This document shows positions 26,210-64,000 of a DNA stretch of 64,000 nucleotides, piece after piece. Position 1 is the first letter of the stretch, and each line of letters opens with the position of its first letter. Source of the stretch: Escherichia phage LH2; the sequence record OQ378934.1; one strand, 5' to 3'. Position numbers and translations under genes: made by a program. The notes under the pieces were generated by a model, which was given only the letters and a program-made list of their open reading frames with translations, was not told the DNA's origin and did not search any database.

Positions 26210-27760
26210 ATGATTAAGAATGAAATTAAAATTCTGAGCGATATTGAACATATCAAAAAGCGTAGCGGCATGTACATTGGTTCTTCTGCTAATGAAATGC
26301 ATGAGCGCTTTCTGTTTGGTAAATGGGAAAGTGTTCAGTATGTACCTGGTCTTGTTAAGCTTATTGATGAAATTATCGATAACTCAGTAGATGAAGGTAT
26401 TCGTACTAAGTTTAAATTCGCAAATAAAATTAATGTTACCATTAAAAATAATCAGGTAACAGTTGAAGATAACGGTCGTGGTATTCCACAAGCGATGGTT
26501 AAAACACCTACCGGTGAAGAAATTCCTGGTCCAGTTGCTGCATGGACTATTCCAAAAGCAGGTGGTAACTTTGGTGATGATAAAGAACGCGTCACTGGCG
26601 GTATGAACGGTGTTGGTTCTAGTTTAACTAACATTTTTTCTGTGATGTTTGTCGGCGAAACTGGCGATGGTCAAAATAATATTGTAGTTCGTTGTTCAAA
26701 TGGCATGGAAAATAAATCGTGGGAAACTATTCCTGGAAAATGGAAAGGAACTCGTGTTACTTTCATTCCTGATTTTATGTCATTTGAAACTAATGAGCTA
26801 TCTCAGGTTTATCTTGACATTACATTAGATCGTCTCCAGACACTTGCAGTAGTTTATCCTGATATTCAATTTACCTTTAATGGTAAAAAGGTTCAGGGTA
26901 ATTTTAAGAAATACGCACGCCAATATGATGAGCATGCTATCGTTCAAGAACAAGAAAATTGTTCTATTGCGGTTGGTCGTTCACCGGATGGTTTTCGTCA
27001 ATTAACATACGTCAATAACATTCATACTAAGAATGGTGGCCATCACATTGACTGTGTTATGGATGATATTTGTGAAGACCTTATTCCACAAATCAAACGT
27101 AAATTTAAAATTGACGTAACTAAAGCACGTGTTAAAGAATGTTTGACTATCGTTATGTTTGTTCGTGATATGAAAAACATGCGATTTGATTCTCAAACTA
27201 AAGAGCGTTTGACTTCTCCATTTGGTGAAATTCGTAGTCATATTCAGCTTGATGCTAAAAAGATTTCACGTGCTATTTTAAATAATGAAGCAATTTTAAT
27301 GCCAATTATTGAAGCTGCCTTAGCTCGTAAATTGGCGGCAGAAAAAGCAGCAGAAACTAAAGCAGCTAAAAAGGCCTCTAAAGCTAAGGTTCATAAACAT
27401 ATCAAAGCGAATCTTTGTGGTAAAGATGCTGACACGACTCTTTTCTTGACTGAGGGTGATTCTGCTATCGGATATCTTATTGATGTTCGTGATAAAGAAC
27501 TTCATGGTGGTTATCCATTGCGTGGTAAAGTTCTTAACAGTTGGGGTATGTCATATGCTGATATGCTTAAAAACAAAGAACTGTTTGATATTTGCGCAAT
27601 CACTGGATTAGTTCTTGGTGAAAAGGCATTTGAAGAAAAAGAAGATGGCGAGTGGTTTACTTTCGAACTAAATGGCGATACAATTATCGTAAATGAAAAT
27701 GATGAAGTACAGATTAATGGTAAATGGATAACAGTAGGTGAATTACGAAAAAATCTATAA
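26210..27760 (+). CDS. 39: topoisomerase II large subunit gp39 (GyrB-like ATPase)
   Basis: 516 aa; recognised as T4 gp39; ends where mobA insertion begins. Confidence 0.95.
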   Translation: MIKNEIKILSDIEHIKKRSGMYIGSSANEMHERFLFGKWESVQYVPGLVKLIDEIIDNSVDEGIRTKFKFANKINVTIKNNQVTVEDNGRGIPQAMVKTPTGEEIPGPVAAWTIPKAGGNFGDDKERVTGGMNGVGSSLTNIFSVMFVGETGDGQNNIVVRCSNGMENKSWETIPGKWKGTRVTFIPDFMSFETNELSQVYLDITLDRLQTLAVVYPDIQFTFNGKKVQGNFKKYARQYDEHAIVQEQENCSIAVGRSPDGFRQLTYVNNIHTKNGGHHIDCVMDDICEDLIPQIKRKFKIDVTKARVKECLTIVMFVRDMKNMRFDSQTKERLTSPFGEIRSHIQLDAKKISRAILNNEAILMPIIEAALARKLAAEKAAETKAAKKASKAKVHKHIKANLCGKDADTTLFLTEGDSAIGYLIDVRDKELHGGYPLRGKVLNSWGMSYADMLKNKELFDICAITGLVLGEKAFEEKEDGEWFTFELNGDTIIVNENDEVQINGKWITVGELRKNL

Positions 27761-28556
27761 TGACTTAATAGTGCGGGGTAAAACCCGCGTTTCTAAATTT
27801 AAGGGTGAAATTCATCATATCCTTCCAAGATCAATGGGAGGTTCTGATGATAAAGAAAATTTGGTGAAACTGACTTTTCGTGAACACTTTTTAGCACATT
27901 TTCTACTATATAAAATTCATCGTAATCGTGAAATGGCATATGCGATGAATAGAATGTTAAACACTGAAAAATATTTACGTTCTAGTAAATTATATGAAAT
28001 TGCTAGAATTTACCATCAAAGAGCAGTATCTGAATGGTCAAAAAACTTTATGAAAGATAAAGTTTTAATGAGAAGTATTAAATCGGGTAAATGCGCCTTA
28101 TTAATTAAAGGATCATTTAACCCAAAGGAATGGTGCGGTGTTAATAAAGGTGTTAAGCTTCCTGGAATTAAAGGCATGACATGCTTTAAAAATGAAAAGG
28201 GCGAAGTTTTTCGTCTTCATGTTAATGATCCACGCATTAAAGCTGAAAAATTAGTTGGTATTGGAAATACTGTTGCTGCTACTGCAAAAGCAGCTGAACT
28301 TGAAAAAGCGAAACCATGGTATAATAAATCAGCGACAAATCCAGAGGCTGTAAAATTAATACCAAATTTATATGAATGGTACGTCACGAAATATGACCCC
28401 GATCATTATAAACGAACAGGAGTTGCTAAATGGAAATCAGTTAATAATATAACTGTGAATTCAAAATTATTCGGCCGAGCATTTAATGAATTTAAACGCG
28501 GTTGGATTCCTGATGAAAAGTTCTATGAGGTGTATAATGAAATTTGTAAAAATTGA
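27738..28556 (+). CDS. mobA: HNH homing endonuclease MobA
   Basis: GTG start overlapping last 23 nt of gene 39; HNH core EIHHILPRSMGGSDDKENLVKLTFREH; sits between 39 and 60 as T4 mobA. Confidence 0.85.
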   Translation: MNYEKIYNDLIVRGKTRVSKFKGEIHHILPRSMGGSDDKENLVKLTFREHFLAHFLLYKIHRNREMAYAMNRMLNTEKYLRSSKLYEIARIYHQRAVSEWSKNFMKDKVLMRSIKSGKCALLIKGSFNPKEWCGVNKGVKLPGIKGMTCFKNEKGEVFRLHVNDPRIKAEKLVGIGNTVAATAKAAELEKAKPWYNKSATNPEAVKLIPNLYEWYVTKYDPDHYKRTGVAKWKSVNNITVNSKLFGRAFNEFKRGWIPDEKFYEVYNEICKN

Positions 28557-28674
28557 TTCTTCTAGCGTTGATATGAAAAAATATAAATTGCAGAACAATG
28601 TTCGTCGTTCTATTAAATCCTCTTCAATGAACTATGCGAATGTCGCTATTATGACAGACGCAGATCACGATGGA
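28537..28674 (+). CDS. 60: topoisomerase II subunit gp60, codons 1-46 up to take-off GGA
   Basis: MKFVKIDSSS...DADHDG then UAG; matches T4 gene 60 before the bypass. Confidence 0.9.
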
Positions 28675-28724
28675 TAGCCTTCGGGCTATCCATAGAAATA
28701 CCTCATAATTAAGAGATTATTGGA
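28675..28724 (+). other. gene 60 translational bypass (50-nt coding gap)
   Basis: take-off GGA 28672-28674, UAG stop, tagcc-ttcg-ggcta hairpin, landing GGA 28722-28724; segment lengths sum to 160 aa. Confidence 0.9.
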
Positions 28725-29069
28725 TTAGGTTCTATTTATCCTTCTTTGCTCGGATTTTTTAGTAATTGGCCAGAACTGTTTGAACAAGGAAGAATTCGCT
28801 TTGTCAAAACTCCTGTAATCATCGCTCAGGTCGGTAAAAAACAAGAATGGTTTTATACAGTCGCTGAATACGAGAGTGCTAAAGATGCTCTACCTAAACA
28901 TAGCATCCGTTATATTAAGGGACTTGGCTCTTTGGAAAAATCTGAATATCGTGAGATGATTCAAAACCCAGTATATGATGTTGTTAAACTTCCTGAGAAC
29001 TGGAAAGAGCTTTTTGAAATGCTCATGGGAGATAATGCTGACCTTCGTAAAGAATGGATGAGCCAATAG
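28725..29069 (+). CDS. 60: topoisomerase II subunit gp60, codons 47-160 after landing
   Basis: Resumes LGSIYPSLLGFFSNW...; listed ORF 28746 is the in-frame tail. Confidence 0.9.
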   Translation, partial: LGSIYPSLLGFFSNWPELFEQGRIRFVKTPVIIAQVGKKQEWFYTVAEYESAKDALPKHSIRYIKGLGSLEKSEYREMIQNPVYDVVKLPENWKELFEMLMGDNADLRKEWMSQ

Positions 29070-29123
29070 TTTACTTTACCACAAGGATGTGGTATAATTA
29101 ATTGGGCAAATGAGGATATTGAA

Positions 29124-55393: not shown

Positions 55394-56186
<793 letters not shown>

Positions 56187-56187
<1 letters not shown>

Positions 56188-56735
56188 TGAAACAATACCA
56201 ATTTTTAATTAAAGATATCCTGGAAAACGGTTATGAAACCGATGACCGAACAGGCACAGGAACAATTGCTTTGTTCGGTACTAAATTACGCTGGGATTTA
56301 ACTAAAGGTTTTCCTGCAGTAACGACTAAGAAGCTTGCCTGGAAAGCTTGCATTGCTGAGCTCCTTTGGTTTTTATCAGGAAGCACAAATGTTAATGATT
56401 TACGATTAATTCAACACGATTCATTAATTCAAGGCAAAACAGTCTGGGATGAAAATTACGAAAATCAAGCAAAAGATTTAGGATATCATAGCGGTGAACT
56501 TGGTCCAATTTATGGAAAACAGTGGCGTGATTTTGGCGGTGTAGACCAAATTGTAGAAGTTGTTGATCGTATTAAAAAACTGCCAAATGATAGACGTCAA
56601 ATTGTTTCAGCATGGAATCCGGCAGAACTCAAGCAGATGGCATTGCCACCTTGTCATATGTTCTATCAGTTTAATGTGCGTAATGGCTATTTGGATTTGC
56701 AGTGGTATCAACGATCAGTAGATGTTTTCTTGGGT
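56187..56735 (+). CDS. td: thymidylate synthase Td, exon 1
   Basis: MKQYQ... to ...SVDVFLG; exon ends at U 56735 before intron. Confidence 0.93.
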
Positions 56736-57751
56736 TAATTTAGGCCTGAGTATAAGGTGACTTATACTTGTAATCTATCTAAACGGGGAACCTCTCTAGT
56801 AGACAATCCCGTGCTAAATTGTAGGACTACCCTTTAATAAATACTTCTATATTTAAAGAGGTATTTATGAAAAGTGGAATTTATCAGATTAAAAATACTT
56901 TAAACAATAAAGTATATGTAGGAAGTGCTAAAGATTTTGAAAAGAGATGGAAGAGGCATTTTAAAGACTTAGAAAAAGGATGCCATTCTTCTATAAAACT
57001 TCAAAGGTCTTTTAACAAACACGGTAATGTGTTTGAATGCTCTATTTTGGAAGAAATTCCATATGAGAAAGATTTGATTATTGAACGAGAAAATTTTTGG
57101 ATTAAAGAGCTTAATTCTAAAATTAATGGATACAATATTGCTGATGCAACGTTTGGTGATACATATTCTGTACATCCATTAAAAGAAGAAATTATTAAGA
57201 AACGCTCTGAAACTGTTAAAGTTAAGATGCTTAAGCTTGGCTCTGATGGTCGGAAAGCTCTTTACGGTAAACCCGGAAGCAAAAATGGGCGTTGGAATCC
57301 AGAAACCCATAAGTTTTGTGAATGTGGGGTTCGTATACAAACTTCTGCTTATACTTGTAGTAAATGCAGAAATCGTTCAGGTGAAAATAATTCATTCTTT
57401 AATCATAAGCATTCAGACAAAACTAAATCTAAAATATCAGAAAAAATGAAAGGTAAAAAGCCTAATAATATTAAAAAGATTTCATGTGATGGGATTATTT
57501 TTGAATGTGCAGCTGATGCAGCTAGATATTTTGAAATTTCATCCGGATTAGTTACTTACCGTGTAAAATCTGATAAGTGGAATTGGTTCTACATAAATGC
57601 CTAACGACTATCCCTTTAGGGAGTAGGGTCAAGTGACTCGAAACGATAGACAACTTGCTTTAGCAAGTTGGAGATATAGTCTGCTCTGCATGGTGACATG
57701 CAGCTGGATATAATTCCGGGATAAGATTAACGACCTTATCTGAACATAATG
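56736..57751 (+). mobile_element. td group I self-splicing intron (1016 nt)
   Basis: Interrupts td between ...DVFLG and LPFNIASYA...; exactly 1016 nt as the T4 td intron; contains I-TevI ORF. Confidence 0.9.
56867..57604 (+). CDS. I-TevI: intron-encoded GIY-YIG homing endonuclease I-TevI
   Basis: 245 aa; MKSGIYQIKNTLNNKVYVGSA... GIY-YIG domain, zinc finger and C-terminal HTH. Confidence 0.93.
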   Translation: MKSGIYQIKNTLNNKVYVGSAKDFEKRWKRHFKDLEKGCHSSIKLQRSFNKHGNVFECSILEEIPYEKDLIIERENFWIKELNSKINGYNIADATFGDTYSVHPLKEEIIKKRSETVKVKMLKLGSDGRKALYGKPGSKNGRWNPETHKFCECGVRIQTSAYTCSKCRNRSGENNSFFNHKHSDKTKSKISEKMKGKKPNNIKKISCDGIIFECAADAARYFEISSGLVTYRVKSDKWNWFYINA

Positions 57752-58063
57752 CTTCCATTCAACATTGCCTCGTACGCTGCCTTGACGCATATTGTAGCTA
57801 AGATGTGTAATCTTATTCCAGGAGATTTGATATTTTCTGGTGGTAATACTCATATCTATATGAATCACGTAGAACAATGTAAAGAAATTTTACGTCGTGA
57901 ACCTATGGATTTATGTGAATTACAATTAAAATTTCCAGATGAATTTGATGAATGGGGCACAGAATCTCAGGTATTTTGGTTGAGTCAATTCGCAAAGCCA
58001 CATAATTTTGTTCTTAACAACTATGTATCTCATCCGCCAATTAAAGGAAAGATGGCGGTGTAA
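57752..58063 (+). CDS. td: thymidylate synthase Td, exon 2
   Basis: Resumes LPFNIASYAALTHIVAKMC...; exon 1 plus exon 2 = 286 aa. Confidence 0.93.
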   Translation, partial: LPFNIASYAALTHIVAKMCNLIPGDLIFSGGNTHIYMNHVEQCKEILRREPMDLCELQLKFPDEFDEWGTESQVFWLSQFAKPHNFVLNNYVSHPPIKGKMAV

Positions 58064-58086
58064 TTTTAATTTAATTGAGAGGATAT

Positions 58087-58332
58087 ATGATTTTACGATT
58101 TAAGGATACTTCTGGTGTCGTTCTTTTTACACTTCCTAATCCAAGTGAACTGGAAGTTCCAGGGCCAGAACAGCCTATTATCATTTATGGCAAAAAATAT
58201 TATACTCATAAAATGACTCGTGAGTATTTTGATAATAAAATTTCTACAGTTAAAACTTCTTCTGATTGTTATTATGATATTACTGTTTTAACGGAAAAAC
58301 AATATGACGAATGCAGAACTTTAGCAGTATAA
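58087..58332 (+). CDS. hypothetical protein
   Basis: ATG 58087 with gagagga RBS; 81 aa. Confidence 0.45.
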
Positions 58333-59052
58333 ATATGATTCCCAGCAATCTAGAGCGCATCTTTTAGATATAAGTTTTCTGCTTATTCCGGTTTGACGCA
58401 CAGCTTCTGCTATTGTTGGATATTCTACCCCATCTATACTTACTCTTAGATGGGGTTTCTTTTTACCTCTTTGCGAGTCAGAAATTCGTTTTCTAACTTC
58501 ATTGGTATGTGTCTGTCCATAATATGGGTTATTGATGCCTTTCATATTAAGTGCAGCGTTTCTTTCTTGGAACTTTTTGCTTATTTCTATAGCACGATCT
58601 AACCCATAGTGTTCTTCTATAGTTTTACCTTTGATATCTCTAGGTCTACCATGTTTTTGCTTAAGTTCTTCTGGTGATAATTTTGAATTATTATTTTTAA
58701 TTGCATTTGAAATTTTATTAAGGATTTCTTTCTTTCTTGGGTGATGAGATAAGGTATCCCCAAACGATGCGTCTGCTATATTATACCCATTTTCCTTTGA
58801 GTCATATTCATGCATCCAATAATTTTCACGTTCAATAATGATAGATTTTTCGTATGGAAGTTCTTCTATGATTTTACATACGAAAGCATCTTTCCCATGC
58901 TTATTATAAGAACGCTGCAGCTTTATTGAATGATGATTTCCATTATCTAAATCTTTAAAGTGTCGTTTCCATCGTTCTTCAAAATTAATTGCACTTCCTA
59001 TATAGTGCTTATTGGTTTTAGTGTTTATAATAGCATATATTCCAGATTTCAT
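58321..59052 (-). CDS. free-standing GIY-YIG endonuclease, I-TevI paralogue (antisense)
   Basis: 243 aa; N-terminal ~115 aa closely parallel to I-TevI ([21 protein letters not shown]...RWKRHFKDL...NGYNIADA); SD aggaga; late promoter upstream. Confidence 0.75.
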
Positions 59053-59074
59053 TATATTCTCCTATATAAAATTA

Positions 59075-59082
59075 TATTTATA
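59075..59082 (-). promoter_or_regulatory. late promoter TATAAATA for antisense GIY-YIG gene
   Basis: Reverse complement of tatttata at 59075-59082, ~23 nt upstream of the minus-strand ATG. Confidence 0.5.
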
Positions 59083-59107
59083 TGGGGTAACTTACTATAG
59101 AGGACTT

Positions 59108-61372
59108 ATGCAATTAATTAATGTTATCAAAAGTAGTGGTGTTTCTCAGAGCTTTGATCCACAAAAAATTATTAAAGTTTTATCTTGGGCAGCTGAAGGA
59201 ACATCTGTAGATCCTTATGAATTATATGAAAATATTAAATCATATCTCCGTGATGGAATGACCACTGATGACATTCAAACCATTGTAATTAAGGCTGCTG
59301 CGAATTCTATTTCAGTTGAAGAGCCTGATTATCAATACGTAGCTGCACGCTGTTTAATGTTTGCTCTTCGTAAGCATGTTTACGGGCAATATGAACCACG
59401 TTCATTTATTGACCATATTTCTTACTGCGTAAATGAAGGTAAATACGACCCTGAATTGTTGTCAAAATATTCTGCAGAAGAAATTACATTTTTAGAATCA
59501 AAAATTAAGCACGAGCGGGATATGGAATTTACTTATTCCGGGGCGATGCAATTAAAAGAAAAATATCTCGTTAAAGATAAAACCACTGGTCAAATTTATG
59601 AAACTCCACAGTTTGCATTTATGACTATTGGAATGGCATTGCATCAAGATGAACCTGTTGATAGACTAAAACACGTTATTCGTTTTTATGAAGCAGTATC
59701 TACTCGACAGATTTCATTACCAACTCCTATTATGGCTGGTTGCCGTACTCCAACTCGGCAGTTTAGTTCATGCGTTGTTATCGAGGCGGGTGATTCGCTG
59801 AAGTCTATCAACAAGGCTTCCGCTTCAATTGTTGAATATATCTCCAAACGCGCTGGAATTGGTATTAACGTTGGTATGATTCGTGCTGAAGGTTCTAAGA
59901 TTGGCACAGGTGAAGTACGTCATACTGGTGTTATTCCTTTTTGGAAACATTTTCAGACTGCTGTTAAATCATGCTCACAGGGTGGAATTCGTGGCGGCGC
60001 TGCTACTGCTTATTATCCTATTTGGCATTTGGAAGTTGAAAATCTTCTCGTTTTGAAAAATAACAAAGGTGTAGAAGAAAACCGTATCCGTCATATGGAT
60101 TATGGTGTTCAGCTGAATGACCTAATGATGGAACGATTCGGAAAGAACGATTACATTACTTTGTTTAGTCCGCATGAAATGGGTGGCGAGCTTTATTATT
60201 CTTATTTTAAAGACCAAGACCGTTTCCGCGAATTATACGAAGCAGCAGAAAAAGACCCTAATATTCGCAAAAAGCGTATTAAAGCCCGTGAACTATTTGA
60301 ATTACTCATGACTGAACGATCAGGAACAGCAAGGATTTATGTACAGTTCATTGATAATACGAATAACTATACTCCATTTATTCGTGAAAAGGCACCTATT
60401 CGTCAGAGTAACTTGTGTTGTGAAATTGCTATTCCAACAAATGATGTGAATAGTCCTGATGCTGAAATCGGATTGTGTACCCTTAGCGCATTTGTGTTGG
60501 ATAACTTCGATTGGCAAGACCAAGATAAAATTAATGAATTGGCAGAAGTCCAAGTTCGCGCTCTTGATAATCTTTTGGATTACCAAGGATATCCAGTTCC
60601 TGAAGCAGAAAAAGCTAAAAAGCGTCGAAATCTTGGTGTAGGTGTTACTAACTATGCAGCTTGGCTGGCAAGCAACTTTGCTTCTTATGAAGATGCTAAC
60701 GATTTAACACATGAACTATTTGAGAGACTACAGTATGGACTCATTAAAGCATCCATTAAGCTCGCCAAAGAAAAAGGACCTTGCGAATATTATTCAGACA
60801 CTCGTTGGTCTCGAGGCGAATTACCTATCGACTGGTACAATAAAAAGATTGACCAAATCGCAGCTCCAAAATACGTTTGTGACTGGTCGGCGCTGCGGGA
60901 AGACCTTAAGCTCTTTGGCATCCGTAATAGCACATTATCAGCACTTATGCCATGTGAGTCATCTTCCCAAGTTTCTAACAGTACAAACGGTATCGAGCCT
61001 CCACGTGGACCAGTCTCTGTTAAAGAGTCAAAAGAGGGTTCCTTTAATCAAGTCGTGCCCAATATTGAACATAACATAGACCTCTATGATTATACGTGGA
61101 AATTAGCTAAGAAAGGTAATAAACCTTATCTTACGCAGGTAGCTATTATGCTGAAATGGGTATGTCAATCAGCTTCAGCGAATACATATTATGACCCGCA
61201 GATTTTTCCAAAAGGAAAGGTTCCAATGTCTGTAATGATTGATGACATGCTATACGGATGGTATTATGGCATTAAAAACTTCTATTATCATAATACCCGC
61301 GATGGTTCTGGTACTGATGATTATGAAATAGAAACTCCAAAAGCTGAAGATTGTTCATCCTGTAAATTATGA
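59108..61372 (+). CDS. nrdA: ribonucleotide reductase large subunit NrdA
   Basis: ATG 59108; 754 aa; ATP-cone N-terminus; recognised as T4 NrdA. Confidence 0.95.
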   Translation: MQLINVIKSSGVSQSFDPQKIIKVLSWAAEGTSVDPYELYENIKSYLRDGMTTDDIQTIVIKAAANSISVEEPDYQYVAARCLMFALRKHVYGQYEPRSFIDHISYCVNEGKYDPELLSKYSAEEITFLESKIKHERDMEFTYSGAMQLKEKYLVKDKTTGQIYETPQFAFMTIGMALHQDEPVDRLKHVIRFYEAVSTRQISLPTPIMAGCRTPTRQFSSCVVIEAGDSLKSINKASASIVEYISKRAGIGINVGMIRAEGSKIGTGEVRHTGVIPFWKHFQTAVKSCSQGGIRGGAATAYYPIWHLEVENLLVLKNNKGVEENRIRHMDYGVQLNDLMMERFGKNDYITLFSPHEMGGELYYSYFKDQDRFRELYEAAEKDPNIRKKRIKARELFELLMTERSGTARIYVQFIDNTNNYTPFIREKAPIRQSNLCCEIAIPTNDVNSPDAEIGLCTLSAFVLDNFDWQDQDKINELAEVQVRALDNLLDYQGYPVPEAEKAKKRRNLGVGVTNYAAWLASNFASYEDANDLTHELFERLQYGLIKASIKLAKEKGPCEYYSDTRWSRGELPIDWYNKKIDQIAAPKYVCDWSALREDLKLFGIRNSTLSALMPCESSSQVSNSTNGIEPPRGPVSVKESKEGSFNQVVPNIEHNIDLYDYTWKLAKKGNKPYLTQVAIMLKWVCQSASANTYYDPQIFPKGKVPMSVMIDDMLYGWYYGIKNFYYHNTRDGSGTDDYEIETPKAEDCSSCKL

Positions 61373-61388
61373 TATAATTACCACAAGG

Positions 61389-62981
61389 ATGTGGTTAACT
61401 AAGAATAACGCTATGTTTGATAATATATACAAAAACGGAAAGTTTCTTCCATTTGGAGAAGAAAAACTTAAATCTAGACTAACAGAAGAAGATAAAGCTC
61501 TTCTAACTGATGGAATAGATTTTAAGCTCAATGTGTTCCAAATTATGGAAGGCATTGACATTAACGATCTAAAATGTGCAGTTTGTGGAAATTTCATTTC
61601 TCTGAAAACAGCAAAGAAACGTGTATTTCCAGCAACATGTAGTAAATCCTGCGCAGGGATATTTTTCGCGGATAAGAGAATTCAAAGCCGTGATACAAAT
61701 TTTGGCGGAAAAGAAAAATATAAAAAATATTTGTCTGAACTTCAACACAAAAATTCTTTAGAAAAATATGGAACAACTCATCAAAAAATTTCAAGAAATA
61801 AAAATAGAAAAACTTTAATTGAACGATATGGGGTAACGCATAATTCACAATTAGAAAGTGTGAAAGAAGCGAGAAAAGTTATAGAAAACGGTAAATCAGT
61901 TGATATTCTGCATTCTAGAAAATCTCGCGAAAAATCTAAGAAGACTAAATTAAATTGGACTAAAGAATATAAGGCATCGTTATATTCATCTATAGGAAAA
62001 TCTATTAAAAATAACGGTCATATTAATCATGATATACTAGATAAAATCAATTACAAAATTTCTATAGAAGAACTACAACAATTAGCAAATTGTTCTCGGA
62101 TGACGGCTTATAGAGCTCTTTCATCCAAAGGACTAATTGACGTTCATTATACTCAAAGTTCTATAGAGCAGTTCATTTTAGATCTAGGATTTGATTGCGT
62201 AGAAACTAGAAAAATTATTCCTCCGTATGAATTAGATATTTACATTCCTGAGAAAAAATTGGCTATAGAATACGATGGAATTTATTGGCATTCTAGCGGG
62301 TCAAAGGAAACAGATAAAATTAAAGAAACTTATCATTTGATGAAGACAGAGATGTGTGAAGCACAAGGAATTCAATTACTTCACATCTTCGAAAATGAAT
62401 GGATTGATGATACAAAAAGAGAGATCTGGAAATCCATTATAAAGCATAAATTAGGATTATCAGAAAGAATACCAGCCCGAAAATGCAAAGCACGGTTTGT
62501 TAATAAGGATGAGGCAAAAGAATTTATTAATAAGAATCATCTTCAAGGATTTTGCTCAGGAGCTCATACGTATAAAGGACTTTATTACAATAATGAGTTA
62601 GTTCAAATTATTTCTATCGGTAAATCTAGATATAGCTCAGGTGATGAACTTTTAAGGATGTGTTCAAAATTAGGGGTTTGTGTTGTAGGAGGAGCCTCAA
62701 AATTATTAAAAGGAATTAATTGTCTATCTTATGGCAATCGAAGATGGTGCAGTACATTATCAAATGTTTATGACTCTGTCATGGAATTTAGTCATATCTC
62801 TGAGCCATGTTATTGGTACGTCGATAAAGGAGAGGTATTTCACCGCTCAAGCTATATGAAACATAAGCTTAAAAACAAGCTTAAAAATTATGATGATACA
62901 ATAACTGAAGTAGAAAATTGTTATGCAAATGGTCTTAGAAGAATCTGGGACTGTGGAAATTTAGTTTACAGGACAAAATAA
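61389..62981 (+). CDS. multidomain nuclease-like protein (putative free-standing homing endonuclease)
   Basis: 530 aa; zinc ribbon CAVCGN...CSKSC, KYGTTHQ/RYGVTHN repeats, HTH-like stretch, Vsr/DUF559-like PYELDIYIPEKKLAIEYDGIYWHS; start may be ATG 61413. Confidence 0.55.
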   Translation: MWLTKNNAMFDNIYKNGKFLPFGEEKLKSRLTEEDKALLTDGIDFKLNVFQIMEGIDINDLKCAVCGNFISLKTAKKRVFPATCSKSCAGIFFADKRIQSRDTNFGGKEKYKKYLSELQHKNSLEKYGTTHQKISRNKNRKTLIERYGVTHNSQLESVKEARKVIENGKSVDILHSRKSREKSKKTKLNWTKEYKASLYSSIGKSIKNNGHINHDILDKINYKISIEELQQLANCSRMTAYRALSSKGLIDVHYTQSSIEQFILDLGFDCVETRKIIPPYELDIYIPEKKLAIEYDGIYWHSSGSKETDKIKETYHLMKTEMCEAQGIQLLHIFENEWIDDTKREIWKSIIKHKLGLSERIPARKCKARFVNKDEAKEFINKNHLQGFCSGAHTYKGLYYNNELVQIISIGKSRYSSGDELLRMCSKLGVCVVGGASKLLKGINCLSYGNRRWCSTLSNVYDSVMEFSHISEPCYWYVDKGEVFHRSSYMKHKLKNKLKNYDDTITEVENCYANGLRRIWDCGNLVYRTK

Positions 62982-63656
62982 TGAGTACAGTTTTTAATAC
63001 TAAACAGGTCGATGTTTTAAAAGAACCTATGTTTTTTGGTTCAGGTCTTGGTATTGCGCGTTATGATATTCAACGGCATCGAGTATTTGAAGAACTTATT
63101 GAACGTTCGCTCTCGTTTTTCTGGCGTCCGGAAGAAGTAAACTTGATGATGGATGCTGCACAGTTTAATAAGCTTCCTCAGTATCAACAAAATATTTTTA
63201 CTAATAATCTGAAGTATCAATCATTACTTGATAGTATTCAAGGTCGTGCGCCGTCTGCTGTACTTATGCCATTGCTTTCAGACCCAAGCCTTGATACATG
63301 GGTTGCTACATGGACTTTTAGTGAAACTATTCACAGTCGTTCATATACTCATATCATGCGAAATCTTTATACTGATCCGTCAAAGGTATTTGATGAGATT
63401 GTATTAGATGAAGCTATTATGAAACGCGCTGAATCCATTGGGCGTTATTATGATGATGTTCTGATTAAAACCCGTGAATGGGAAAATGCTAAAGAATTTG
63501 TAGAACTAGCTAAAGAATCTCCTGATGCCGACTTTCGTTTAAACCGAGCTATTAAACAAGAAGCCGAAGCTAAACGTGCTTTAATGAAATCTCTTTATCT
63601 CTGTTTGCACGTTATTAATGCCTTAGAAGCTATTCGTTTTTATGTATCTTTTGCGT
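62981..63656 (+). CDS. nrdB: ribonucleotide reductase small subunit NrdB, exon 1
   Basis: MSTVFNTKQVDVLKEP... to ...FYVSFA then in-frame stop where the intron begins; exact 3' boundary not verified. Confidence 0.8.
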
Positions 63657-64000
63657 AAAATGCGCCTTTAAACGGTAACGTTTATCGAAAACTCCTTTAA
63701 TTGCTGGAAAGTCCTTTATAGGAAAACTAGCAGCCAAGGTTTTGCTTGCACCTTTAATTAGTATAATATGATTATACTTTTAAGAGGATGCACAATTGAA
63801 CTATAGAAAAATTTGGATAGATGCTAACGGACCTACCTAAAGATTCTGATGGAAGACCATAAGAAAAGAACATCAGCAAAAACATTAGAAATGGTTAAGA
63901 ATGGGACCCATCCTGCACAAAAAGAAATCACATGTGATTTCTGCGGTCACATTGGTAAAGGTCCTGGATTTTATCTAAAACATAATGACAGATGTAAATT
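63657..64000 (+). mobile_element. nrdB group I intron, 5' part (runs off window)
   Basis: nrdB frame terminates mid-domain after FYVSFA; downstream holds HNH-like endonuclease coding remnants typical of the T4 nrdB intron. Confidence 0.55.
63796..64000 (+). pseudogene. I-TevIII-like HNH endonuclease ORF with frameshifts, partial
   Basis: LNYRKIWIDANGPT* in frame 1, PKDSDGRP* in frame 2, MEDHKKRTSAKT...CDFCGH in frame 3; N-terminus resembles the mob HNH genes in this window. Confidence 0.45.

Follow-up and report, generated by a model that had tools for sequence, protein, structure and literature searches.

In the 64-kb window of Escherichia phage LH2 (the whole stretch of 64,000 nucleotides analysed here, record OQ378934.1), a single open reading frame at 61389..62981 on the + strand takes up the whole gap between nrdA and nrdB. 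It begins with an ATG and encodes 530 amino acids, and its TAA stop (62979-62981) shares bases with the nrdB ATG at 62981 (TAATG), confirming the uninterrupted, overlapping frame described in the initial annotation. The features of the locus are as follows.

59108..61372, + strand: nrdA, the left flank (ORF, Pfam).
61380..62980, + strand: hef cassette of 1,601 bp, in place of the 44-nt nrdA-nrdB spacer of empty-site phages (junction comparison).
61380..61395, + strand: 6-bp hairpin ACCACA-AGGA-TGTGGT, over AAGGA and the first ATG (sequence, folding).
61389..62981, + strand: hef coding sequence, 530 aa counted from the first ATG (ORF, U5 hef match, phrog_3339).
61575..61652, + strand: putative zinc finger, residues 63-88, FCS/YacG-like (conservation, weak profile matches).
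61671..61868, + strand: helical 'KYG' repeats, residues ~95-160, DUF7487-type, presumed DNA-binding (relatives' Pfam matches, model).
62052..62126, + strand: helix-turn-helix (HTH)-like segment, residues 222-246 (weak HTH_11 match, model).
62145..62438, + strand: EDxHD/Vsr-like nuclease domain, residues ~253-350 (Pfam, profile, conservation, literature); D296 is listed within it alongside D283, H301 and D309.
62442..62978, + strand: domain resembling the Mom-family GNAT fold, residues 352-530 (structure comparison, profiles, conservation).
62981..~63655, + strand: nrdB exon 1, the right flank and the reported Hef target gene (ORF, Pfam; target from a review).

Sequence comparison identifies this frame, with a probability that we put at about 90%, as hef, a free-standing homing endonuclease gene whose first description came from phage U5. 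Its DNA is 99.4% identical over 1,593 bp to the U5 gene (AY262133, 'hef: Hef homing endonuclease'), and the LH2 and U5 proteins differ at 4 of 530 residues (A89S, R177K, K192E and S417T), leaving conserved positions unaffected. The profile phrog_3339, 'homing endonuclease', matches the full length of the protein (residues 7-529, E=3e-151). A different architecture of mobile nuclease had been suggested for this ORF; the gene is instead already known, as a named and characterised homing endonuclease, and its architecture is not new. For the LH2 window, the main outcome is a corrected annotation.

According to a review, U5 Hef is a unique homing endonuclease, not of the HNH type, whose cut lies close to its own locus, in nrdB. 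Taylor et al. 2011 (PMC3239194) assigned enzymes of the Hef type to the EDxHD family, which is Vsr-like. The initial annotation saw no HNH motif here, and a Pfam scan of the protein at E<=1 indeed returned no HNH family; its accompanying premise, that hef is of HNH type, does not agree with the published description of Hef as non-HNH and Vsr-like. No HNH domain in the LH2 protein supports the phrog_559 label 'HNH endonuclease'. Many GenBank records label the identical gene 'hypothetical protein'.

We delimited the insertion by aligning the nrdA-nrdB junction, as had been proposed, against the empty site BYEP01 and T4. The resulting boundaries (61380..62980) show directly that the gene arrived as a cassette. 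Between carriers, the cassette is 99.4-99.9% identical and the flanks 87-97%; conservation so far above that of the flanks marks the hef cassette as a mobile element. Of 596 related phage records with this nrdA end, only 16 have the cassette, and both empty sites and sites occupied by mobE occur at the nrdA-nrdB junction of relatives. With the invariance of the nuclease residues D283 and H301, these observations refute the view that the ORF is ordinary conserved T4-type content of the interval without a nuclease; we found nothing in favour of that view and leave it virtually no probability. They support instead a free-standing mobile nuclease in a known landing site. Across 376 phage records, the wider family has 915 copies, with as many as 11 in one genome and at varied positions (adjoining uvsX in PM2, for example); its nuclease and Mom-like core is constant and its N-termini vary. 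In mixed infection, as reported for U5 Hef, the hef-encoded protein would cut a hef-less genome near the hef locus, in nrdB, and repair of the break from the hef-carrying genome would then copy the cassette across.

The start codon of hef is likely the second ATG, at 61413 (Met9), giving a protein of 522 aa, because close orthologues begin MFDNI and the equivalent start Met in phage TG1 sits behind a strong AGGAGG. Residues 1-7 have a pLDDT below 50 in the structure model. The start annotated further upstream in U5 is missing in LH2, where position 61347 reads AAG rather than ATG. This loss might suggest that hef in LH2 has decayed into an inactive remnant. Decayed homing genes are indeed found at this locus, since the nrdB intron next to hef aligns with the T4 intron (96.6%), and the I-TevIII of the latter is annotated as defective. 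We nevertheless consider a remnant very improbable: the ORF is intact, its four differences from U5 Hef are conservative, the conserved Met9 start is kept and hef is at least 99.2% identical among the 16 carriers.

At the left end of the cassette, the 15-mer CCACAAGGATGTGGT straddles the first ATG and contributes to the 6-bp hairpin rather than lying simply upstream. It had been read as a decayed copy of an early-promoter spacer. An exact copy does exist: the 18-mer at 61378-61395 recurs once, at 29076-29093, within a genuine GTTTAC-17-TATAAT early promoter ahead of rIIA.1. However, the hef copy spans the first ATG and lacks -35 and -10 elements, and promoter decay is unsupported. With 44 distinct 18-mers recurring within the window, the 18-nt identity is weak evidence, and the promoter-relic argument is unnecessary because the cassette boundaries are shown directly; we leave the identity unexplained and do not count it as evidence. 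TG1 and the empty site have hairpins of other sequence at the equivalent position. The 66-nt start region has a folding energy no better than shuffled sequences (z=-0.65), and we make no claim of translational control. Between 60900 and 63300, a promoter scan was uninformative (14 promoter-like sites, with 10.6 expected) and a terminator scan found none; a search of 55500-64000 with Rfam gathering thresholds gave no group I intron, though td and nrdB are clearly interrupted.

The N-terminal part of the protein contains the CxxC...CxxxC zinc ribbon noted at the outset, with C63, C66, C84 and C88 invariant in 40 of 40 relatives and weak profile matches to an FCS finger (2l8e, E=0.017) and YacG (E=0.15). 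The two tandem basic repeats were also recovered; this 'KYG' region matches Pfam DUF7487 in the relatives P0009, P0011 and P0061, and its helices are modelled at pLDDT 76-91. For the proposed HTH-like stretch, two helices are predicted (226-233 and 237-246), whereas the HTH_11 match is weak (E=0.13). This variable N-terminal part (zinc finger, KYG repeats and HTH) would read the target sequence.

The Vsr/DUF559-type signature recognised in the central domain is real, though the LH2 protein alone stays below Pfam thresholds (MTES_1575, E=1.7e-4; DUF559, E=0.011); a family profile finds 3r3p, the catalytic domain of I-Bth0305I, at E=4.8e-4. The metal-binding Asp (I-Bth D196, Vsr D51) corresponds to D283 and the general-base His (I-Bth H213, Vsr H69) to H301, both kept in 40 of 40 relatives; H301 aligns with A213 of 3r3p, the crystal construct being D196A/H213A. 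A candidate for the second Asp (I-Bth D222, Vsr D97) is D309, which is Asp in 30 of 40 relatives; it sits in a gapped loop, offset by one residue in the alignment. The first Glu (I-Bth E170, Vsr E25) is Q256 in the LH2 protein and its closest relatives and Glu in 32 of 40. That Glu was called only possibly catalytic in I-Bth0305I by its authors (Taylor et al. 2011, PMC3239194), and U5 Hef, reported active, also has Q256. Further invariant residues of the domain are E294, H316, K319 and H332. The EDxHD domain would cut DNA with D283 binding metal and H301 as general base, probably as a dimer by analogy with I-Bth0305I, which needs dimerisation to cut both strands (PMC3239194).

The C-terminal ~180 aa resemble a Mom-family GNAT domain in the structure model, with profile support at the family level. 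Foldseek gave Mu Mom (8bv8) as the best PDB match of residues 352-530 (E=1.9e-6), and in a BFVD structure search the first match outside the family was a stand-alone Mom. Family against family, hhalign aligned the Hef domain with Mom at 88% probability (E=3e-6), ending at Mom residue 190, within Mom's HTH-like insertion (175-209). The model places a basic helical insertion between strands at residues ~486-516. Pfam Mom (PF25680) is matched by the domains of 16 of 25 relatives and is not reached by the LH2 protein alone; when the C-terminal profile was searched against PDB sequences, Mom was missed, and only fold comparison detected it. Aligned with the single Mu Mom sequence, the Hef domain profile scored weakly (3% probability) and misplaced S124 (at V433); the profile-profile run supersedes this result, and the pairing of S124 with S437 is taken from the profile alignment only. 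In that alignment, the essential Mom residues R111, S124 and R151 correspond to R423 (40/40), S437 (39/40) and R452 (40/40), and the equivalents of H58, E108 and Y159 (H384, E420 and Y461) are kept in 39-40 of the 40 relatives. In place of Mom D149 stands N450 (Asn in 36 and Asp in 4 of the 40), and Y59 corresponds to L385. The initial suggestion of a nuclease fused to cargo stands in that an extra, Mom-like domain is carried; 'cargo' describes it loosely.

Mu Mom is a Gly-tRNA-dependent GNAT that modifies DNA adenine N6, is a dimer whose dimerisation is required for activity, and needs its HTH-like insertion for activity (Nat Commun 2026, PMC13219725). The Mom-like domain of Hef may likewise be an active transferase, with DNA adenines in or close to the target as its substrate, and not a passive scaffold; this is our best guess, to which we give just short of an even chance. 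The fuller proposal, that Hef-type homing endonucleases carry a working Mom-type transferase that marks adenine with an acyl or aminoacyl group at or near the target site, we consider fairly unlikely as a whole.

Alternatively, the Mom-like domain may be catalytically silent, a dimerisation or DNA-clamping scaffold, perhaps with base-flipping, that would bring two single-site Vsr-type domains together to make a double-strand break; the gene would still be a homing endonuclease. This is a credible competitor, at somewhat under even odds. Both Mom and I-Bth0305I depend on dimerisation, as described above, and the replacements at D149 and Y59 and the sub-threshold Pfam Mom score of the LH2 protein are consistent with lost catalysis. 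However, the six retained Mom residues persist in relatives that are only 35-60% identical overall, and no other part of the protein is as conserved as the Mom-like domain (mean column identity 56%, against 35% over the full length); a domain that only served as a scaffold would have no need of precisely those residues.

The same catalytic set would also suit a one-chain weapon resembling restriction-modification, in which adenines of the phage itself would be marked by the Mom domain and the nuclease would turn on host or competitor DNA that lacks the mark, with spread of the gene as a by-product. Iyer, Anantharaman, Krishnan, Burroughs and Aravind 2021 (PMC7824862) read Mom domains fused to REase-fold nucleases in this restriction-modification-like way; phage PA5oct, in their account, has five such enzymes. 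Among the structural relatives of the Mom-like domain of Hef is a 'putative homing endonuclease' from PA5oct (BFVD rank 9). We find this reading distinctly unlikely for hef, since the family follows the pattern of homing genes rather than that of a defence locus: it is multicopy within genomes, lies beside conserved DNA-metabolism genes, has variable DNA-binding heads and shows cassette mosaicism. T-even phage DNA is, moreover, already hypermodified at cytosine. Hef reportedly also cuts the DNA of its own phage, which counts against a weapon and is at odds with a simple version of self-protection by modification. Also against a weapon, U5 Hef reportedly cleaves in nrdB, close to hef, and not DNA at large.

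We found no literature linking Hef with Mom. If the transferase proposal is true, Hef would combine homing with a built-in chemical immunity or with marking of its target, and work on Hef homing and on 'momylating' Mom-nuclease fusions would become one body of work, concerning more than 900 phage copies. The constant core of this family pairs a Vsr-like nuclease with a Mom-family domain in which catalytic residues are kept, and as Mom chemistry was solved only recently, DNA modification by a homing endonuclease is now practical to test. A positive outcome would change the view of self-cleavage avoidance and of phage competition for this large Hef-type family.

Among known systems, LH2 hef shares with U5 hef its location between nrdA and nrdB and the stop/start overlap with nrdB. 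The two differ in the U5-annotated ATG, which is AAG in LH2, and in their surroundings: the nrdA 3' end is 92.2% and nrdB exon 1 87.2% identical, and ~475 nt of the U5 nrdB intron are missing from that of LH2. MobE of T4, also free-standing, fills the same nrdA-nrdB slot and targets nrdB, but it is an unrelated HNH protein of 232 aa whose left junction with nrdA differs from that of hef. Hef follows the same two-domain logic as the Mom-REase fusions of jumbo phages, whereas the available text of PMC7824862 does not tie those to Hef or homing and lacks the terms 'Hef', 'Vsr' and 'homing endonuclease'. Mu Mom (8bv8) is the closest solved structure to residues 352-530 and is related by profile homology, with H58, E108, R111, S124, R151 and Y159 having kept equivalents; identity is ~19%, with N for D149 and L for Y59 in Hef. 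Mom stands alone and modifies DNA, whereas the Mom-like domain of Hef, which has no known modification activity, shares its chain with a nuclease and a DNA-binding head. I-Bth0305I, the EDxHD prototype, is homologous to Hef in its catalytic domain, including the metal-binding Asp and the general-base His; it is intron-encoded, with NUMOD/HTH DNA-binding repeats and a C-terminal nuclease. Hef, in contrast, is free-standing, has a zinc finger and DUF7487 repeats and Gln for the first Glu, and carries the additional 180-aa Mom-like domain C-terminal to its nuclease.

A single uninterrupted ORF fills the gap between nrdA and nrdB, as the initial annotation had read from the sequence; the ORF listing and raw sequence bear this out, the final base of its TAA being the first base of the nrdB ATG at 62981 (TAATG).

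61389..62981, + strand: hef ORF, ATG start, 530 aa
61380-62980: hef cassette, 1,601 bp, in place of a 44-nt spacer (empty-site junction comparison)
One flank: nrdA, with Pfam ATP-cone, all-alpha and barrel domains
Other flank: nrdB, with a Pfam small-chain match

We identify the ORF as hef itself because it is 99.4% identical by megablast to AY262133.2 ('Bacteriophage U5 ... Hef (hef)'), because the LH2 and U5 proteins differ at only 4 residues (A89S, R177K, K192E and S417T, leaving conserved positions unaffected), and because phrog_3339 'homing endonuclease' in PHROGs matches its full length (E=3e-151). The U5 record is annotated 'hef: Hef, homing endonuclease' and places the gene between nrdA and nrdB. 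Among 50,697 phage records, megablast returned 16 matches, every one with at least 99.2% identity; about half of these records label the identical gene 'hypothetical protein'. The initial annotation had set the ORF apart from hef, which it took to be HNH-type; the observation was correct, and the gene was already known. Every sequence motif it listed is present, and the four cysteines (C63, C66, C84 and C88) are invariant across 40 aligned relatives. U5 hef has been described as 'a unique endonuclease' that cleaves nrdB, as the HNH enzyme MobE does (Edgell 2010 review). A Pfam scan detected no HNH domain in the LH2 protein, despite the label 'HNH endonuclease' on the related phrog_559.

Alignment of nrdA-nrdB junctions, a check suggested at the outset, defined the insertion. 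The last 400 bp of nrdA matched 596 phage records, with query coverage in three classes (1-400, 1-391 and 1-380). The junction is empty in phage BYEP01 and holds mobE in T4. The window and the empty site are homologous up to ...TGATATAATT (61379) and again from the nrdB ATG onwards, and the cassette therefore replaces the spacer.

Identity to the window of the hef cassette, nrdA 3' end and nrdB exon 1
U5 (carrier): 99.4%, 92.2%, 87.2%
N2 (carrier): 99.9%, 92.6%, 96.6%
BYEP01 (empty site): absent, 99.3%, 87.9%

Such a mosaic of cassette and flank identities is what recent lateral spread of hef would predict. Yersinia phage TG1, from another genus, carries a 65%-identical orthologue in the same slot, and Proteus phage PM2 has a paralogue with a different N-terminus adjoining uvsX. 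Across phages, tblastn placed the family at 915 sites in 376 records, with as many as 11 copies in individual Campylobacter phage genomes.

We think that the real hef start is 61413 (Met9 of the ORF), since the start annotated in U5, 42 nt upstream, reads AAG in LH2, close orthologues begin MFDNI at Met9, AGGAGG precedes the equivalent Met in TG1, residues 1-7 are modelled with pLDDT <50, and the first ATG, with AAGGA directly beside it, is enclosed in a 6-bp hairpin. The folding stability of this hairpin is thermodynamically unexceptional. In all three junction types, TATAAT directly follows the nrdA stop and is followed by a short hairpin: ACCACA..TGTGGT with hef (window 61373..61395), GACTC..GAGTC at the empty site (BYEP01 sequence, L002 ~2885-2910) and GGACAT..ATGTCC in TG1 (L006 2970-2992). 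That the position is kept while the sequence changes is a hint that the downstream gene is served by a functional stem-loop or promoter-proximal element. Eighteen nucleotides, TTACCACAAGGATGTGGT, are repeated exactly: at 29076..29093 they form the spacer within an early promoter (GTTTAC-17-TATAAT) ahead of rIIA.1/rIIA, and at 61378..61395 they span the first hef ATG without -35 and -10 elements. The repeat may be chance or a shared element; 44 distinct 18-mers recur within the window.

The suggestion of a Vsr/EDxHD-type nuclease proved right, and had been published in 2011: 'bacteriophage Hef type homing endonucleases' were then assigned to the Vsr-like family named EDxHD (Taylor et al. 2011, PMC3239194). 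Pfam matches to MTES_1575 and DUF559 at residues 258-351 are both sub-threshold; with a profile of the 40 family members, the solved structure that scores best is the I-Bth0305I catalytic domain (3r3p; E=4.8e-4).

EDxHD positions, as defined by Taylor et al. 2011 (PMC3239194), in I-Bth0305I / Vsr and in Hef, with conservation in 40 relatives
E170 / E25: Q256; E in 32/40
D196 / D51: D283; 40/40
N208 / H64 (the 'x'): D296; N or D
H213 / H69: H301; 40/40
D222 / D97: probably D309, which sits in a loop one residue off the aligned position; D in 30/40

The C-terminal region resembles Mom, the DNA-modifying protein of phage Mu. Precomputed Pfam matches to PF25680 ('Mom protein family') cover the C-terminal ~150-170 residues of Hef relatives. 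An AlphaFold2 model of the LH2 protein, built on the 40 relatives (mean pLDDT 90), matched the Mu Mom crystal structure 8bv8 best in the PDB by Foldseek (E=1.9e-6), ordinary GNAT acetyltransferases ranking after it. A comparison with predicted structures of viral proteins gave Hef-like proteins for roughly the first 23 matches; the first outside the family were stand-alone ~200-aa proteins, one annotated Mom, with generic GNATs lower. Searched alone, 16 of 25 Hef-family C-terminal domains matched Pfam Mom; that of LH2 did not. Profile-profile comparison of the two families gave 88% probability (E=3e-6, 128 columns). The Mom active site comprises H58, Y59, R111, S124, D149, R151 and Y159 (2026, PMC13219725).

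Mom residues and Hef equivalents from the profile-profile alignment, with conservation in 40 relatives
H58: H384; 39/40
Y59: L385; changed
R111 (essential): R423; 40/40
S124 (essential): S437; 39/40
D149: N450; N 36, D 4
R151 (essential): R452; 40/40
Y159: Y461; 39/40

This domain is the best-conserved region of the protein (mean column identity 56% versus 35% overall) and, with the nuclease, forms a constant family core on which N-terminal DNA-binding heads are exchanged. Hef-type Mom-like domains also stand alone in some phages (BFVD A0A7T3KDC2, 182 aa, rank 1; A0A2R3ZY99, 133 aa, rank 21; the Campylobacter phage F336 one being 43% identical), and could be gene fragments or independent domain units.

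Hef is a homing endonuclease cutting nrdB (Edgell 2010 review), I-Bth0305I acts as a dimer leaving two-base 5' overhangs (Taylor et al. 2011, PMC3239194), and Mom moves glycine from Gly-tRNA onto adenine N6 in dsDNA (PMC13219725). Hef identity, cassette, mosaicism, conserved nuclease and Mom-type residues and modular N-termini were observed directly; beyond them, target recognition would fall to the zinc finger, KYG repeats and HTH at the N-terminus, and cleavage, as a dimer, to the EDxHD domain. We favour, at a probability of roughly 45%, a Mom-like domain that may be an active transferase, because catalytic residues are kept, beyond the fold alone. A silent scaffold is nearly as probable; some other role, or a wrong alignment, is less likely. 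Against an active transferase stand the change of Mom D149 to N and the finding, reportedly made by Sandegren et al. 2005, that Hef cuts the DNA of its own phage as well. What remains of value is a testable idea, that this very large homing endonuclease family also modifies DNA.

The Mom identity is implicit in databases, because PF25680 matches relatives and one GenBank record names a hef relative 'putative nuclease/acetyltransferase'; our literature search for a Hef-Mom connection found no paper discussing it. Iyer/Aravind 2021 (PMC7824862) read fusions of Mom to REase-fold nucleases as restriction-modification-like and mention five such enzymes in PA5oct; in the text accessible to us, none of the words Hef, Vsr and homing endonuclease occurs. 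The Hef C-terminal domain has a structural relative in PA5oct, a protein annotated 'putative homing endonuclease'.

Three homing-endonuclease genes lie within about 6 kb: I-TevI in td, hef, and the following gene between td and nrdA, which adjoins a DUF5496 ORF (58075..58332) and whose N2 counterpart is annotated 'endonuclease I-TevI'.

58321..59052, - strand: second I-TevI-like GIY-YIG gene, 243 aa, with GIY-YIG, NUMOD3 and I-TevI DNA-binding domains

Elsewhere, the ORF list holds a 272-aa HNH-motif ORF ('...HHILPRSMGGSDDKENLVKLTFREH...'; 27738..28556 and 28486..29069 region) adjoining two short ORFs that resemble a split end of the topoisomerase gene; to us, the 27738..29069 region resembles that around T4 mobA and gene 60, the site of a translational bypass. 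LH2 nrdB is interrupted after 225 codons (window 63656..64000; L001 2543-3378), and what follows aligns at 96.6% identity with the T4 nrdB intron region; the annotation of I-TevIII, the ORF of that T4 intron, describes it as truncated and defective. A search of Rfam at gathering thresholds gave no group I intron. At the interruption, U5 is longer than the window by about 475 nt. N2, the closest carrier, has hef and an uninterrupted nrdB; hef and the nrdB intron therefore assort independently among carriers. In both BYEP01 (empty nrdA-nrdB site; L002 1195-1905) and TG1 (hef carrier; L006 967-1917), nrdA is broken into two parts by an additional ORF, for which the TG1 annotation is homing endonuclease; the arrangement recalls the fragmented nrdA of phage Aeh1.
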